Below, in pieces: positions 2,545-61,893 of a stretch of DNA of 64,000 nucleotides (within the stretch, counting starts at the first letter, position 1; every line of letters starts with the position of its first letter). This DNA comes from Escherichia coli. Lineage in GTDB: Bacteria > Pseudomonadota > Gammaproteobacteria > Enterobacterales > Enterobacteriaceae. The DNA lies in assembly GCF_041886205.1 (NCBI RefSeq), contig NZ_CP169029.1. One strand, written 5' to 3'. The notes beneath the pieces are model-generated. The model was not told the DNA's origin. It worked only from the letters and a program-made list of their open reading frames with translations, and searched no databases. A program made the position numbers and the translations under genes.

Positions 2545-3189
2545 GTGCGATATGACGAAGAATTAATGGAGAATGTGATGATCAGGCAGAAGATTCTACA
2601 GCAGCTCCTGGAGTGGATTGAGTGCAATCTTGAGCACCCTATTTCAATCGAAGATATCGCACAGAAATCTGGCTACAGCAGACGCAACATCCAGCTTCTG
2701 TTCCGAAATTTCATGCATGTGCCTTTGGGAGAATACATTCGCAAACGAAGGCTTTGTCGTGCCGCCATTCTTGTCCGGCTCACCGCAAAATCTATGCTTG
2801 ATATTGCACTCTTTTTGCATTTTGATTCACAGCAGTCATTCAGCCGCGAATTTAAAAAGTTATTCGGCTGCTCTCCCCGTGAATACCGCCACCGTGATTA
2901 TTGGGATCTCGCAAATATCTTCCCTTCTTTTTTAATACGTCAACAGCAAAAGACGGAGTGTAGATTAGTCAACTTTCCTGAGACACCTATTTTTGGCAAT
3001 TCATTTAAATATGATATTGAAGTGTCGAATAAATCACCGGATGAAGAAGTCAAACTGCGACGTCATCATTTAGCCAGATGTATGAATAATTTTAAGACGG
3101 ATATCTATTTCGTCTCCACGTTTGAACCGTCAACAAAATCGGTCGATTTGCTCACGGTTGAAACTTTTGCCGGTACGGTATGCAGGTGA
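2545..3189 (+). CDS. AraC/XylS-family transcriptional regulator, 3'-truncated by IS1 (stop codon supplied by the IS1 left end)
   Basis: N-terminal HTH region (IEDIAQKSGYSRRNIQLLFRNF...SQQSFSREFKKLFGCSPREYR); the ORF ends at TGA 3187-3189, which lies inside the IS1 terminal sequence GGTGATGCTGCC starting at 3185. Possibly the ykgA-type regulator; not confirmed. Confidence 0.7.
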   Translation: MRYDEELMENVMIRQKILQQLLEWIECNLEHPISIEDIAQKSGYSRRNIQLLFRNFMHVPLGEYIRKRRLCRAAILVRLTAKSMLDIALFLHFDSQQSFSREFKKLFGCSPREYRHRDYWDLANIFPSFLIRQQQKTECRLVNFPETPIFGNSFKYDIEVSNKSPDEEVKLRRHHLARCMNNFKTDIYFVSTFEPSTKSVDLLTVETFAGTVCR

Positions 3190-3239
3190 TGCTGCCAACT
3201 TACTGATTTAGTGTATGATGGTGTTTTTGAGGTGCTCCA

Positions 3240-3515
3240 GTGGCTTCTGTTTCTATCAGCTGTCCCTCCTGTTCAGCTACTGACGGGGTGGTGCGTAACG
3301 GCAAAAGCACCGCCGGACATCAGCGCTATCTCTGCTCTCACTGCCGTAAAACATGGCAACTGCAGTTCACTTACACCGCTTCTCAACCCGGTACGCACCA
3401 GAAAATCATTGATATGGCCATGAATGGCGTTGGATGCCGGGCAACCGCCCGCATTATGGGCGTTGGCCTCAACACGATTTTCCGCCATTTAAAAAACTCA
3501 GGCCGCAGTCGGTAA
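3240..3515 (+). CDS. insA: IS1 InsA (transposition regulator/DNA-binding)
   Basis: 91 aa [43 protein letters not shown]... matches IS1 InsA. Confidence 0.92.
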
Positions 3516-3937
3516 CCTCGCGCATACAGCCGGGCAGTGACGTCATCGTCTGCGCGGAAATGGACGAACAGTGGGGCTATGTCGGGGCTAAATCGCGCCA
3601 GCGCTGGCTGTTTTACGCGTATGACAGGCTCCGGAAGACGGTTGTTGCGCACGTATTCGGTGAACGCACTATGGCGACGCTGGGGCGTCTTATGAGCCTG
3701 CTGTCACCCTTTGACGTGGTGATATGGATGACGGATGGCTGGCCGCTGTATGAATCCCGCCTGAAGGGAAAGCTGCACGTAATCAGCAAGCGATATACGC
3801 AGCGAATTGAGCGGCATAACCTGAATCTGAGACAGCACCTGGCACGGCTGGGACGGAAGTCGCTGTCGTTCTCAAAATCGGTGGAGCTGCATGACAAAGT
3901 CATCGGGCATTATCTGAACATAAAACACTATCAATAA
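3434..3937 (+). CDS. insB: IS1 InsB (transposase catalytic part, normally expressed as InsAB' by frameshifting)
   Basis: 167 aa ORF overlapping the insA 3' end in another frame; sequence ...[21 protein letters not shown]...MTDGWPLYE... typical of InsB. Confidence 0.88.
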
Positions 3938-4004
3938 GTTGGAGTCATTACCAACGATCAAATTCAAACCAGCATGAAACTTTATTAAGCGTATAACCCC
4001 ATCT

Positions 4005-4256
4005 TTATTGGCTATCTGGAGAGATTTTATGAACATATTCCAATTTCCCCTTTGGATTTAATTCAACTATTCCTGCTAGGTATAACCAGTCAAGAGATAA
4101 AACAAAAATTGATATAGACATTTCAATTTTTTTCTTTGTTTCGTAAAAAAGATCTATCAATTCAATTTCATCGAAACGTTTCAGCGTATCTATAATAAAC
4201 CCACCGTTATAATATAAGCTATCTTTAGGATGAATGTCCTTTGGTAACAACATCAT
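4005..4256 (-). CDS. Hypothetical small protein, 83 aa, overlapping the 3' end of the 326-aa gene (likely same operon)
   Basis: ORF start overlaps the upstream gene's stop by ~32 bp; same strand; same AT-rich composition; ends 53 bp from the IS1 right end. Confidence 0.45.
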   Translation of the reverse strand: MMLLPKDIHPKDSLYYNGGFIIDTLKRFDEIELIDLFYETKKKIEMSISIFVLSLDWLYLAGIVELNPKGKLEYVHKISPDSQ

Positions 4257-5205
4257 TCACTCCGTTAGGGTCCCTAAAAATTTTACAGCGTATGAACGCG
4301 TCCACTGCAAGTATACTAACACAAAGCTCCAGTTCCTCTAATGGTATTTGTGTAAAATTTGCACTTTTTCTGACCATTTCAACAGAGCTGTCAATTATTT
4401 TAAAAAATAACTCATCTCCAGTGTATTGTGTACTCAATTTTACGAAGATAGTTCTAAAGGAAGACAAAACTGAAAGGCTTGAGTTTTTACCCATCTGGTT
4501 GAACTCTGAATAAATGCGGGATACTTTTCCATGATGGATTTTGTAATCTTCAATAATATATTCAGCTGCATTCAAATTATTAAATGTAATCTTGTCAGTT
4601 ACATCGAATGGTTGCGGGAAGTCAGTAGTTTCAACATTAGAAAAATCCTCCTTAGCTAATATATTTATAACAGCAGCAATATTTGTTTCGATTAAAACAT
4701 TATCAGATTCCTCTTGTAACTCATTTTTTAGAAAACCGTGTATTTCTTTCTGTTTTGTTATGTCAAGATGTGAAATAACATTAAGTATCGATTTTACATC
4801 ATGAATATCTTGCTGCGGTATAAAAACCAAAGCATGAGGATTAGTGTAAGTTTTATTTCTTAAATCACTAGCATCTTTTGCAATTGATATAAATTTAAAC
4901 TGATGGCCTTTATATAATCTTAAGTCTTTGTTCAAGGCTGAATCAATTTTTGTTTTAGTTGCAGTTGATGAAACCTGTAATACTATCTTCCCATTCTCAT
5001 CGATAAGATCGATACCCTCAAAATTATGCTTCTCTTGATTAGTATTCTTTAGGGAATACCCAAATAATAAATTAAAGAAGTGAACATAAAAATCTTCACA
5101 ATGAAGATTATAGTTAAGAATATTTAACTTCCCTCTTAATTCAACGCTATAGCATAGCAACGTAAGCCTTTTCTCACATAAATCAAAATAAATAGATCTG
5201 TTCAC
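4225..5205 (-). CDS. Hypothetical protein, 326 aa, AT-rich accessory gene (possible phage-defence/abortive-infection-type effector; unverified)
   Basis: Long uninterrupted ORF in a visibly AT-rich block between IS1 and tRNA-Thr; no family recognised with confidence from sequence alone. Confidence 0.6.
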   Translation of the reverse strand: MNRSIYFDLCEKRLTLLCYSVELRGKLNILNYNLHCEDFYVHFFNLLFGYSLKNTNQEKHNFEGIDLIDENGKIVLQVSSTATKTKIDSALNKDLRLYKGHQFKFISIAKDASDLRNKTYTNPHALVFIPQQDIHDVKSILNVISHLDITKQKEIHGFLKNELQEESDNVLIETNIAAVINILAKEDFSNVETTDFPQPFDVTDKITFNNLNAAEYIIEDYKIHHGKVSRIYSEFNQMGKNSSLSVLSSFRTIFVKLSTQYTGDELFFKIIDSSVEMVRKSANFTQIPLEELELCVSILAVDAFIRCKIFRDPNGVNDVVTKGHSS

Positions 5206-5458
5206 ACATATTATCCTTAAACTATAAACTAATCCGATATTATGAACTTAGGTAAAGTAGAAAAACTCTTCACAGATCTTACAGCATCTACGAGCTGGTT
5301 CAAGGTATGTTGAGATGGATTGAGATGTGTAGCGTATCTTCTCATTCCAAAAAGAAACCTGCCACAATTTTGCCACACTCACAACGCGCAAAAATGCACA
5401 TTTGTGTTAAGAAAAGCAAAACAACGCAACAGTAACCAGATGATTTTATTAGAAAAAA

Positions 5459-5534
5459 TGGTGCCGATAATAGGAGTCGAACCTACGACCTTCGCATTAC
5501 GAATGCGCTGCTCTACCAACTGAGCTATATCGGC
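5459..5534 (-). tRNA. thrW: tRNA-Thr
   Basis: Reverse complement reads GCCGATATAGCTCAGTTGGTAGAGCAGCGCATTCGTAATGCGAAGGTCGTAGGTTCGACTCCTATTATCGGCACCA (cloverleaf, CGU anticodon context, 3' CCA); located next to proA as expected for thrW. Confidence 0.9.
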
Positions 5535-19479: not shown

Positions 19480-19784
<305 letters not shown>

Positions 19785-19790
<6 letters not shown>

Positions 19791-20282
19791 AATGATACGC
19801 TCGCCAGCATTTATATCCGTTACGTCCCCCGCCCAATCGATGGGATATAACCCTCGCGCGACATCGCGATGGAACGTTGAGAATGGCCAATCACTCACTT
19901 GCTTTACCCAACCATGCTTTACTGGATTTATATAAATATAATCAACATGATGCCTATAATCTTTGGTATTGCGGATGGCGTGCTCCCAAAAACGTGGTTG
20001 CCAGATATTTTTCAATCCACAAGCATGGGTAAATTGCTTTTTAATTTCCCGCCAGCGCGAGGAAAAATCATCATCGCCTTCAGGTAATGTCCAGATACAG
20101 TGCATATGCTCTGGCAAAACGACCCAGGCGTTGATTTCAAAAGGCCTGTCTCGCTTAACTTTAATAATGGCGTGACGGAGCATCTGGTACTGGGTGGTCA
20201 AGAGTTGGCTTCGACGATTGCGTAAATTCACCGTGAAAAACCAGGTTCCCCCCTTGATGTAATAACGACGATATTCAGACAT
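19785..20282 (-). CDS. rayT: REP-associated tyrosine transposase (RayT/TnpA-REP)
   Basis: 165 aa MSEYRRYYIKGGTWFFTVNLRNRR...; IS200/IS605-like HUH fold (...HMHCIW...); flanked on both sides by REP elements. Confidence 0.85.
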
Positions 20283-20372
20283 GGCGACTCCTTTTTCTCA
20301 ACGGTAAGAAGAAAAGGAAAGGTCGGTAATGAGGTGATGGAATAACAGGAAAGCGGCTCGCAAAAACGCACA

Positions 20373-21216
<844 letters not shown>

Positions 21217-23049: not shown

Positions 23050-23191
<142 letters not shown>

Positions 23192-37693: not shown

Positions 37694-37857
37694 AGCAACC
37701 TCTGGGGTTAGGAAAAACAGACAGTTCGCTGTTAAAGCGGCTGTGACAGTACAGTGTTACGCTTGCGTTCAGGCACGCTACCGCCGAGTTTTCCGGCAGT
37801 CGCCATCTCCCTTGCTAGTACCCTAACTGACAACCTTTTTTTTATGGTGTAATACAA

Positions 37858-37890
37858 AAACAGCATCCGGCCTGATAGCCGGATGCTGTT
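37858..37890 (-). terminator. Rho-independent terminator downstream of hcp
   Basis: On the minus strand, hairpin CAGCATCCGGC-tatcag-GCCGGATGCTG followed by TTTTTGT, 9 bp after the hcp stop. Confidence 0.55.
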
Positions 37891-37898
37891 GGCTTAAC

Positions 37899-38425
37899 TT
37901 ATGCTTCCAGCGGTGCGCGCCAGTCGTCGGCACCGGAGGTGCCAGATTTGACGTGTTCCCATTCAATTTTCGCGGTAGGCCAGTGAAACTTCGAGCAACT
38001 GGGTGAACTCGCGTTTCGCCGGGTCCTGGCAATGCGGCATATGCAGTTCTCATATCGCCAATCGTCGAATCAGTCAGGCGGGGAGCGAGATAGTGCTCCT
38101 GTTTGCCTTCCACAGAGGTACGCCACCAGTGAAGTTCAGCGGTTGGGCAGCATTTCGCCGGAGGCCAGTGCGTTGTACATCAGCGGAACCGCTTTGTTCA
38201 GCGCCACGGTAAAAATGAAAGGCTTGTGAGCGCACGCTGACCCGCAGGCTGACCGGACTGAGGATCGGTCCGCACAGATAACGTTATGCAGGAATTCCTG
38301 CACCAGCATCTCCGTCTTCGTGCCCCTGCACATAGATGTTGCCGACAGAATCAGCGGTAAATGCACCTGCAGTAATATTTCCCTGGGTCTGACCAGTGAT
38401 GGAAGATATAACACGGTGTTGGCAT
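37899..38425 (-). pseudogene. hcp: hcp (T6SS inner-tube protein), frameshifted
   Basis: Start codon at 38425 encodes MPTPCYI...; internal ...HKPFIFTVALNKAVPLMYNALASGE...; C-terminus ...SGADDWRAPLEA* ending at 37899; the length (527 bp) is not a multiple of 3 and the frame changes at least twice. Confidence 0.8.
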
Positions 38426-39135
38426 TTGTAAACTCCTTGTTAACGTGGTTAATTACTACTTACAATGACCTGCCGTTAATCCCAGACAGGCAGATGCAGC
38501 TCACTTCACGGAACCGCATCATTTTTCAGTATTTTTTACATACAAACCGAGCTAGAATTTACGGTTGTCGTAAAAACTATTTTTAAAATCATTACATAAC
38601 TCTCATTCAGCAAATAACTTAATAATATATATCTGGATAGCCATACCCAACTGTTCAAAGTCCGTATTGCCTCCATAAAATGGCCAACAGCGCGAACCAA
38701 CTGAAAATAAATATTGTATTTATCCTTTCTGAATTATCATTTTGATAATTTTTGAAGATATTCCTTAAAAATACCCACTTAATCAATCACAGTAAACACA
38801 TGTATAAATAAGCAATCATTAGATTAGCTCATGTTTAATGAAATTATTATATACTTCAATAAGTTACATAAAAAATCTATATTTAAATTATTGCCATAAT
38901 ACACCTGACGCGAATTGCACAGGTTCACACAATCTATTTAACGCTTGCAGAATACCCCTCTTTACCATCGATAAAAAGTCCTTTTCTTATTTATTTTGAA
39001 GCGTAAAATGCGGGGTGATGAAGGAGCTGGTGATTTTATTTTCACCGCCATTAGGGCGGCATTGCCGATATTTTTTTGCGGTACAAATATGCCGTGTTCA
39101 TGGCCTGTACGAGATAACATGACGGATTACTTTTA

Positions 39136-39647
39136 TGAGCAAAAAATTTGAAGGCAGCGTCGCGCCTCGCGAGCGTATTAACATATCGTATGTCCCAAAA
39201 ACAGATGGCCAGACGGCTGAAGCGGAACTTCCGCTTAACATGCTCGTTGTCGGCGATACCGGAAATACGCAGGAAAACATCCCCACTGGATGAACGTCAG
39301 GCAGTTTCCGTTAACAAGCACAATTTCGGTGCAGTGATGGCTGAAGCAGCCATTGGCCTCAATTTTACTGTCCCCGCCACGCCTGAAGGGAAGCACAACA
39401 GACGATGAACTGAATGTGGCGCTGAATATCAAATCACTGGAAGCTGACTCTTTCACCAGATAGCGTGGCCCGGCAGGTTCCGGGAAGCGAGTAGTAATCG
39501 CTGGAACTGCGTGAAGCACTGACTGCACTGAAGGGGCTCGGCTGGGTAAACCTTCCGGCATTCCGTACCCAGCTCCAGGCATTGCTGGAAAATGAAGAGT
39601 CCCGCGAGCAGTTGCTCAAAGAAATCGGTCTGGTGAGCAATAAATAA
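39136..39647 (+). pseudogene. tssB: tssB (T6SS sheath small subunit, VipA-like), frameshifted with in-frame stops
   Basis: MSKKFEGSVAPRERINISYVPKTDGQTAEAELPLNMLVVGDTGNTQENIP then frame loss; continuation LDERQAVSVNKHNFGAVMAEAAIGLNFTVPATPEG in another frame; TAG-TAA inside the expected coding sequence. Confidence 0.8.
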
Positions 39648-43729: not shown

Positions 43730-44637
43730 ATGGAAATGGACGGAAAGAATCGGGCAGCATCCTCTTATCTGAGTCCGGGAAATCCCCCGGCAGATAAAGA
43801 GCAGAATGATCCGCTGGCACAGGTTTTCCATAATGCCTGCTCTTACAATTTTTTTGCGATGGCGGGCTCGTTGCACCGCCTGGCAAAGGGTGAAAGGGGA
43901 CGCCAGAATTATCCCTGCGTGACGATCCGGCACAGGAAACCCTGCGTTTCAGCGCCGATGCCAGCCTTGCCTTCCCGTGCAGTGATATCAGTGCACTGAA
44001 ACGGGATACGTCAGGGGCATTCAGGATGACCACCACCTTTATGGGGTTACAGGGGAGCCAGTCGCCTCTCCCCGGTTATTACCTCGATCACCTGGCCTGG
44101 AAAGCGGTACATGAACAAAGTCCGGTAGGTGATTTTCTGGATATGTTCAGCCACCGCCTGACCCAGTTTGTCTGGCATATCTGGCGTAAGTACCGCTATC
44201 ACATCAGTTTTCGTAACGGCGGTGTGGATGCGTTCTCGCAGCGCATGTACTCCCTTGTCGGGCTGGGCCACCGCCAGCTTCGCGATAAGCTGGCGATTAA
44301 TCACAGCAAAATGCTGGCGTATTCCGGGATCCTGGCAAATCCGGGATGATCCCCGGAAATAATCTGTGGCCTGGTGTCCCACTGCTTTGATTTGTCAGAA
44401 GTGACGCTGCAAAACTGGCAACGTCGCAAGGTGGATATTGAACCGGATCAGCAAAATAGTCTGGGGAGCTATTCTCTTAAAAATGGCGAAAAACTGGCGG
44501 GAAGATCGGTACTGGGCAACTTTGTTCTGGGTACACGAGTGCCCGATCTCAGCGGAAAATTCCAGCTCAGTATTACCAGCCTGACCCGAAAACAGTTCCT
44601 CTCTTTCTGCCGTCTGGCGAAAACTTCCTGCCACTGA
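43730..44637 (+). pseudogene. tssG: tssG (baseplate component), at least one frameshift
   Basis: ORFs 43730..43999, 44026..44349 and 44374..44637 are consecutive pieces in different frames; position after tssF. Confidence 0.6.
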
Positions 44638-61816: not shown

Positions 61817-61893
61817 TGGCGGAACGGACGGGACTCGAACCCGCGACCCCCTGCGTGACAGGCAGGTATTCTAACCGACTGAACTACCGCTCC
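61817..61893 (-). tRNA. aspV: tRNA-Asp
   Basis: Reverse complement reads GGAGCGGTAGTTCAGTCGGTTAGAATACCTGCCTGTCACGCAGGGGGTCGCGGGTTCGAGTCCCGTCCGTTCCGCCA (GUC anticodon); located next to dnaQ. Confidence 0.92.

Follow-up and report, generated by a model that had tools for sequence, protein, structure and literature searches.

The AT-rich hcp–tssB interval of an Escherichia coli T6SS-2 island: a probable divergent promoter region in a copy with many private changes

The hcp–tssB interval and its orthologues

The subject of this report is a non-coding interval of 709 bp at 38426-39134 of the window, by which we mean the whole stretch of 64,000 nucleotides of Escherichia coli DNA that was analysed. 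On its left lies hcp (37899-38425, reverse strand, start codon at 38423-38425), which encodes the Hcp tube protein and is the first gene of a leftward unit, and on its right lies tssB (39135-39647, forward strand, ATG from 39135), which encodes the small sheath subunit and is the first gene of a rightward structural operon. Both identities were obtained by alignment to the annotated loci of O157:H7 (L001) and O111:H2 12A (L002). The hcp gene has been named hcp3 (PMC13141884), Hcp2 (PMC12981562) and, in S. sonnei, hcp2. In the window the reading frame of hcp is broken by seven small insertions and that of tssB by eight.

A first-pass annotation of the same DNA had described two type VI secretion system (T6SS) units diverging from an AT-rich non-coding interval with poly-A/T tracts, and our coordinates and composition agree with this description. 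The GC content of the interval is 33.9%, as against 52.1% for the window mean and about 55% for the flanks; the 200-bp minimum is 20.5% (38701-38900), and runs of five or more A or T bases occur nine times. When the 64-kb window was examined in 300-bp segments, seven stretches fell below 36% GC and the interval was one of them, so that its composition is clearly low but not unique. As an extended stretch far more AT-rich than its host, it has the xenogeneic composition associated with H-NS.

A 1-kb query centred on the interval gave matches in 2,269 of 5,426 complete E. coli genomes, annotated as 'tssB' on one side and as 'Hcp family type VI secretion system effector' on the other, and the interval alone could be aligned end to end (100% coverage, 94.5-96.8% identity) in 2,228 of the 5,426. 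The window interval differs from the O111:H2 allele by 12 mismatches and 10 gap events, and from the O157:H7 and O55:H7 CB9615 alleles, with 94.8% identity to each, by 22 mismatches and 11 gap events. In the annotated loci of O157:H7, O111:H2 12A and O55:H7 CB9615 (L013), the surrounding genes constitute the T6SS-2 cluster, with hcp, vgrG and rhs leftward and, rightward in this order, tssB, a small hypothetical gene, tssC, tssE, tssF, tssG, tagH, tssJ, tssK, dotU, tssH, vasI, tssA, tssM and a gene for a VasL-domain protein. From fadE to past dnaQ the window and O111:H2 12A are collinear, and the island sits between yafV and dnaQ, adjoining tRNA-Asp (aspV) at 61817-61893. Gene context, full-length homology and location at tRNA-Asp all identify the interval (38426-39134, without assigned strand) as the hcp–tssB region of E. 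coli T6SS-2, the orthologue of the enterohaemorrhagic E. coli (EHEC) element 't6sP'.

In nature the region is stable in length. Eight genome copies of natural E. coli alleles measured 694-697 bp, and the three pairwise comparisons among O157:H7, O111:H2 12A and O55:H7 CB9615 gave only zero to one gap event. Metagenome contigs supplied 61 complete copies representing 42 distinct alleles, with one to five gap events relative to O111:H2; 57 of the 61 were 694-696 bp and the rest ranged from 660 to 703 bp. The polymorphic columns of natural alleles are concentrated in the tssB-proximal half, with 38 in 38801-39134 versus 8 in 38426-38800. Length and AT-richness are kept also in divergent lineages, since the interval is 645 bp with 31% GC in E. 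albertii (L011) and 682 bp with 34% GC in the divergent E. coli 21AR0303 (L010), giving overall ranges of 645-697 bp and 31-34% GC. A cross-species pattern scan of the genome collection detected only E. albertii and one metagenome-assembled 'Citrobacter' contig with approximately the E. coli allele; orthologues outside E. coli are so few that phylogenetic footprinting rests on three lineages. The 'Citrobacter sp.' contig (DXKH01000078.1, L012) has an hcp–tssB region of 696 bp essentially identical to the E. coli allele; an E. coli contig was probably binned wrongly here, the alternative being very recent transfer.

Published regulation, candidate promoters and leaders

The orthologous interval of EHEC EDL933 has been named the 'bidirectional promoter' t6sP; its tssB side is a single polycistronic operon, and its hcp3 side comprises at least two operons (PMC13141884). 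T6SS expression of EDL933 is undetectable in culture, deletion of hns raises hcp3 and tssB mRNA, and a gfp–t6sP–mCherry reporter gives almost no signal in the wild type and a weak one in Δhns (PMC13141884). Two sources report H-NS binding between hcp3 and tssB in EHEC (PMC13141884, citing Kim 2022; PMC5363993), and Wan et al. (2017) found T6SS genes derepressed up to about 60-fold in Δhns (PMC5363993). [quoted passage not shown] For S. sonnei, Leung et al. (2024) cloned the hcp2–tssB interval in both orientations, observed low activity in all conditions tested, and in the same study exchanged the interval for inducible promoters (PMC10924462). The T6SS of O55:H7 CB9615 is reported to function at a higher level than that of O157:H7 (PMC12981562).

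These experiments uphold two claims of the first-pass annotation, namely that the interval is a T6SS control region, because the EHEC orthologue drives both directions and the S. sonnei orthologue was used in reporter fusions and promoter swaps (PMC13141884, PMC10924462), and that such a region would be bound by a silencing regulator, because the EHEC orthologue is a documented target of repression by H-NS (PMC13141884, PMC5363993). On the basis of full-length alignment in 2,228 genomes with tssB and hcp on either side, and of an island adjoining tRNA-Asp, we regard the interval as very probably the region that holds the divergent promoters and the leaders of the aspV T6SS-2 island of E. coli, the same element as EHEC t6sP and the S. 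sonnei region. The window copy shares with t6sP the locus, the flanking genes, the orientation, the length class and the AT content, and departs from the O157 sequence in the gap events and mismatches given above and in one scrambled conserved block. The element and its role are already known, and the copy studied here adds nothing new to them.

The T6SS of Salmonella SPI-6 likewise lies at tRNA-Asp and has an AT-rich promoter region, and Brunet et al. in 2015 reportedly described it as silenced by H-NS. By description, the two are alike in that a T6SS island acquired horizontally at tRNA-Asp has an AT-rich promoter region, silent in culture and derepressed without H-NS; the difference is that SPI-6 belongs to another T6SS lineage with another gene order. 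Repression of the T6SS by H-NS in S. Typhimurium is also mentioned, as cited work, in PMC5363993.

Across E. coli, E. albertii and 21AR0303, 41% of the columns are identical, and five conserved blocks can be recognised (38426-38446, 38483-38496, 38698-38720, 38735-38749 and 39096-39109). The block next to hcp contains the ribosome-binding site AAGGAG of that gene (38433-38438, reverse strand). The block 38735-38749 lies within a perfect 8-3-8 palindrome of 19 bp, AATTATCA-TTT-TGATAATT, at 38732-38750, which does not vary among the eight natural E. coli alleles or in the window and each arm of which offers a -35-like hexamer for one direction. The palindrome also fits the T-N11-A pattern typical of LysR-type sites.

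The best conserved candidate promoter is that of hcp (38713-38740, reverse strand), composed of a -35 ATGATA (38740-38735), a 16-nt spacer and a -10 TACAAT (38718-38713), both hexamers being within deeply conserved blocks; the aligned site is GTGACA-16-TATAAT in 21AR0303, with a score of 11.1, and is weak in E. albertii (1.8). A scan with position weight matrices (PWM), mapped through the alignment, gave this candidate and, for tssB, two others on the forward strand. The distal candidate, TTGATA-N17-TAAAAA at 38742-38771, corresponds to TTGATA-16-TCAAAT in E. albertii and TTGATA-16-TATTTT in 21AR0303, and its spacer is extended to 18 in the window by a private inserted A near 38755. The proximal candidate, TTTTCT-N16-TAAAAT at 38982-39009 (-10 at 39004-39009), corresponds to TTCTCT-16-TAAAAT in E. 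albertii and TTTTCA-16-TAGAAT in 21AR0303. Kim et al. (2022) are said to have mapped more than one transcription start in the divergent region. The PWM scan produced dozens of hits in this AT-rich DNA, so that the assignment of a specific promoter is uncertain.

We propose the following model. H-NS would polymerise across the core of 20-30% GC (about 38560-38960) and occlude weak sigma-70 promoters in both directions, and activation would need an anti-silencer. The most likely promoter core would be the palindrome 38732-38750, whose arms could act as back-to-back -35 elements for the hcp and tssB promoters, with the TACAAT described above as the hcp -10; a second tssB promoter may use the -10 at 39004-39009. 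Transcripts would then begin near 38705 for hcp and near 38778, 39016 or both for tssB. Both leaders would be long, about 280 nt for hcp and, depending on the candidate promoter, about 120-360 nt for tssB, each with small conserved hairpins. Several points count against this model: sigma-70-like sites in the interval are no commoner than in shuffled sequences (5 versus 3.9 ± 2.1 in a generic promoter and terminator scan), the best match to the H-NS nucleation motif TCGATAAATT is 8/10 (TCGATAAAAA at 38968) and is equalled in 89% of shuffles, the published reporters show very low activity with no inducing condition (PMC13141884, PMC10924462), and in the window copy one conserved block (38688-38706) is scrambled and one candidate spacer is longer by 1 bp. 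The window nevertheless keeps almost every sequence feature of the region, among them the palindrome and the hexamers of all three candidate promoters, and intact clusters such as that of O55:H7 CB9615 are collinear with the interval, so that both promoter elements and conservation, which the first-pass annotation had proposed to look for, were found. The conserved palindrome can serve as a lead for locating the native promoter, of which it is a candidate.

In the putative leaders we have found two kinds of small hairpin. A candidate hcp leader hairpin (38470-38493, reverse strand) pairs CUGCC with GGCAG around a loop that includes GGA; it is present in each of the three lineages, its stem being kept in E. 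albertii via G-U pairs and also in 21AR0303, and z-scores of the hcp leader fold against shuffles were not significant. A second GGA is present in the hcp Shine-Dalgarno sequence (38433-38438), and the pair of GGA elements could, as far as their sequence suggests, be reminiscent of CsrA/RsmA targets; the hairpin is a further lead, as a candidate site of post-transcriptional T6SS-2 control. In the putative tssB leader, folding predicts two adjacent small hairpins (39029-39059, forward strand), GGTGA…TCACC and CCGCC…GGCGG, followed by a run of seven T; the z-scores of the leader fold were -1.7 (window) and -2.0 (O111:H2), and stem changes among strains were only partly compensated.

Motif searches were evaluated by the share of dinucleotide shuffles matching at least as well as the interval. 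For sigma-70, Fur and H-NS, the scans suggested in the first-pass annotation, the matches are at chance, and motif scanning at this base composition is uninformative. CRP (best 14/22, with 33% of shuffles as good) and the IHF and Fis consensus sequences were also at chance level in the interval. We therefore advise that motif scans in DNA of 20-35% GC cannot by themselves place promoters, Fur sites or H-NS sites.

Iron-responsive control, which the first-pass annotation had expected, would make the interval a Fur-controlled T6SS promoter. The model for such a promoter is sci-1 (T6SS-1) of enteroaggregative E. coli (EAEC), which Brunet et al. in 2011 are said to have placed under Fur and Dam methylation, and which resembles our case in being an E. 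coli T6SS promoter upstream of tssB. GATAAT-like hexamers in the palindrome 38732-38750 could be read in its favour, but the arms are everted (ATTATCA-N3-TGATAAT) relative to the Fur 7-1-7 dyad, and the best match of the interval to the 19-bp consensus is 13/19, a value reached by 35% of shuffles and repeated in the natural alleles. The single GATC of natural alleles (ACGATCGAT), which the window has lost by a private G-to-C change at 38966, is not beside a Fur-like site, and Fur is absent from the published site predictions for the region (PMC13141884, PMC10924462). These data do not place the interval in the Fur-regulated class of the EAEC sci-1 type, and we consider iron-responsive control very unlikely. 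We judge it equally improbable that the interval hides a small RNA, a small protein gene, a remnant of a mobile element or a promoter of the sigma-54 type with an enhancer-binding protein. Its unusual and conserved length of about 700 bp, together with a tssB-proximal 135 nt whose predicted fold is somewhat more stable than that of shuffled sequences (z = -1.7 to -2.0), might suggest a hidden element. Against this, no Rfam family was found in the interval at the gathering threshold in the whole-window scan or at E <= 1 in the region, the open reading frames there are short and of low complexity with no plausible coding sequence among them, its repeats are short, weak pairs at chance level, and the columns conserved in the three lineages do not show an ORF-like pattern. 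The best match to the sigma-54 -24/-12 element (TGGCAC-N5-TTGCW) is 12/16, which every shuffle equals, and no vasH-like gene is annotated in the cluster; the interval thus shows no promoter element of the V. cholerae VasH type.

Private changes in the window copy and the island

We next describe the changes that are peculiar to the window. Compared with O157:H7 and O111:H2 12A, it shows indels at a density of about 15-19 events per kb between roughly 28.8 kb and 43.9 kb; two much cleaner stretches (about 32.0-33.0 kb, and 36.1-37.9 kb) interrupt this dense zone, and smaller patches reach about 61.2 kb, so that the affected part of the island spans about 28,770-61,160. Near 43,900, inside the tssF/tssG overlap, the density falls abruptly to about zero, and the next 3.4 kb (44.0-47.4 kb) are 99.8% identical to many strains, including O111 and O103. 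Against E. coli wlxctx60 the core flanks show 99.95-100% identity and a single gap over 22 kb; with the clean part of the island so close to O111 and O103 strains, an origin of the window in Shigella or Sodalis is rejected. Island-wide we counted about 277 insertions (217 of 1 bp, 39 of 2 bp and 15 of 3 bp) versus 69 deletions, and the events private to the window in 37.7-43.8 kb are 70 insertions, 8 deletions and 125 substitutions. Roughly 25 indel events lie in 37.9-39.7 kb.

Within the interval, 30 columns are private to the window (13 inserted bases and 17 substitutions), compared with a median of 1 among 49 natural alleles, and 25 of the 30 fall within 38501-38800, a part nearly invariant in nature. 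A burst at 38688-38706, resolved by hand alignment into four small insertions (6 bp) and two substitutions, scrambles a deeply conserved block that lies immediately downstream of the hcp -10 candidate; the burst is absent from the 2,228 genomes, in none of which does the stretch 38585-38810 (226 bp) find a match better than 91.6%. The primers published for the two ends of the orthologous S. sonnei interval (PMC10924462) agree with the window sequence, the only departures being a private additional T in hcp and a C-to-T substitution at 39128.

The first explanation to be considered is that the interval is the relic promoter of a naturally pseudogenised cluster, whose private load would measure the time since loss. 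Such degeneration is documented for T6SS-2 of O157:H7 and S. sonnei (PMC12981562, PMC10924462), the frames of hcp, tssB, tssC, tssE, tssF, vgrG and rhs are broken many times in the window, and the lesions are confined to the island. The three codon positions have received private substitutions in similar numbers (26:23:17), which fits neutrality and differs from natural strain differences (4.7% at third positions versus 0.6% at first and second positions), and the transition to transversion ratio of the private substitutions, 1.5, exceeds the 0.5 expected from random base choice; the natural differences give about 2.6. The S. sonnei cluster, which has real inactivating mutations, shows only a handful of indels and one IS in its core genes, whereas the window has approximately one indel per 60 bp over 15 kb. 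The insertion bias given above, both island-wide and among private events, the near equality of private indel events and substitutions (78 versus 125), and the Poisson-like spacing of events (coefficient of variation 1.0) all speak against decay. So do the 142 of 217 single-base insertions that lack an identical neighbouring base and hence any homopolymer link, the equal density inside and outside genes (15.5 per kb for the interval versus 13-19 per kb for the flanking genes), the abrupt boundary near 43,900 with nearly unaltered sequence beyond it, and the almost identical core flanks. Natural bacterial indels are deletion-biased and tied to slippage in repeats.

The distribution of the changes outside this genome points in the same direction. 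None of the 2,228 genomes shares them, a private 35-mer had no hit in metagenome contigs versus 77 for the natural version, and nine frameshifted ORF products were absent from a collection of 15 billion proteins in which intact TagH and VasI are found on at least 1000 contigs each. Natural decay is consequently, in our judgement, unlikely. If the lesions were nonetheless biological, they would reveal a localised mutational process that adds random bases to an acquired island, one whose EHEC orthologue is H-NS-repressed, and spares the core genome; we hold this to be very improbable.

Because the lesions are biased towards insertions, which consist of random bases with unbiased composition, and are Poisson-spaced, sharply bounded and unshared, we think it likely that the private lesions are uncorrected read error in a part of the assembly, for example an island that escaped polishing. 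As the lesions carry the signature of sequence error, the non-functionality of the cluster is itself doubtful, and the 'pseudogenised T6SS' of the window may be an artefact. The first-pass annotation had also proposed that the state of the promoter elements would indicate how long the cluster has been non-functional; this idea is unsound, because the lesion density is equal in the interval and the genes and the lesions are probably not mutations. The apparent mass pseudogenisation should not be read as evolution before the reads are checked, and this anomaly of the island is more useful to pass on than the promoter element.

Neighbouring loci and other strains

In the closest relative by core genome, wlxctx60, the space from yafV to tRNA-Asp (L003 27,922-34,575, cf. 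window 27,920-61,810) is occupied by another T6SS remnant, which is truncated, contains TagJ, TssE, TssF and TssG fragments and TssA, and is apparently of the T6SS-1 type. Since this remnant differs in spite of 99.95% identity of the flanks, the aspV locus swaps whole T6SS islands between very close strains. At the thrW integration site of the window (3,185-5,534), a copy of IS1 and a stretch of low GC content (about 29-36%, 3,851-5,480) adjoin tRNA-Thr(CGT) (5,459-5,534), and the content there differs from that of the closest relative.

Natural tssC annotations also vary, being 'frameshifted' in O111:H2 12A (L002 16,024-17,498), with an 'internal stop' in O55:H7 CB9615 (L013 16,095-17,570), and as a shorter ORF in O157:H7 (L001 19,631-21,022); a site of recurrent natural disruption or recoding may exist near the 3' end of tssC. 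Between hcp and vgrG the window (37,694-37,898) has the orthologue of EHEC 'h3R', of 205 bp versus 209 bp in O157, with 13 substitutions and 3 gap events. In EHEC, h3R comprises a terminator hairpin stabilising hcp mRNA, an internal promoter and the vgrG 5' UTR (PMC13141884). Four matches to the REP-type naRNA4 (RF02564), at 19,544-20,458 and 23,104-23,181, flank rayT, a REP-associated transposase gene (ORF 19,785-20,282).
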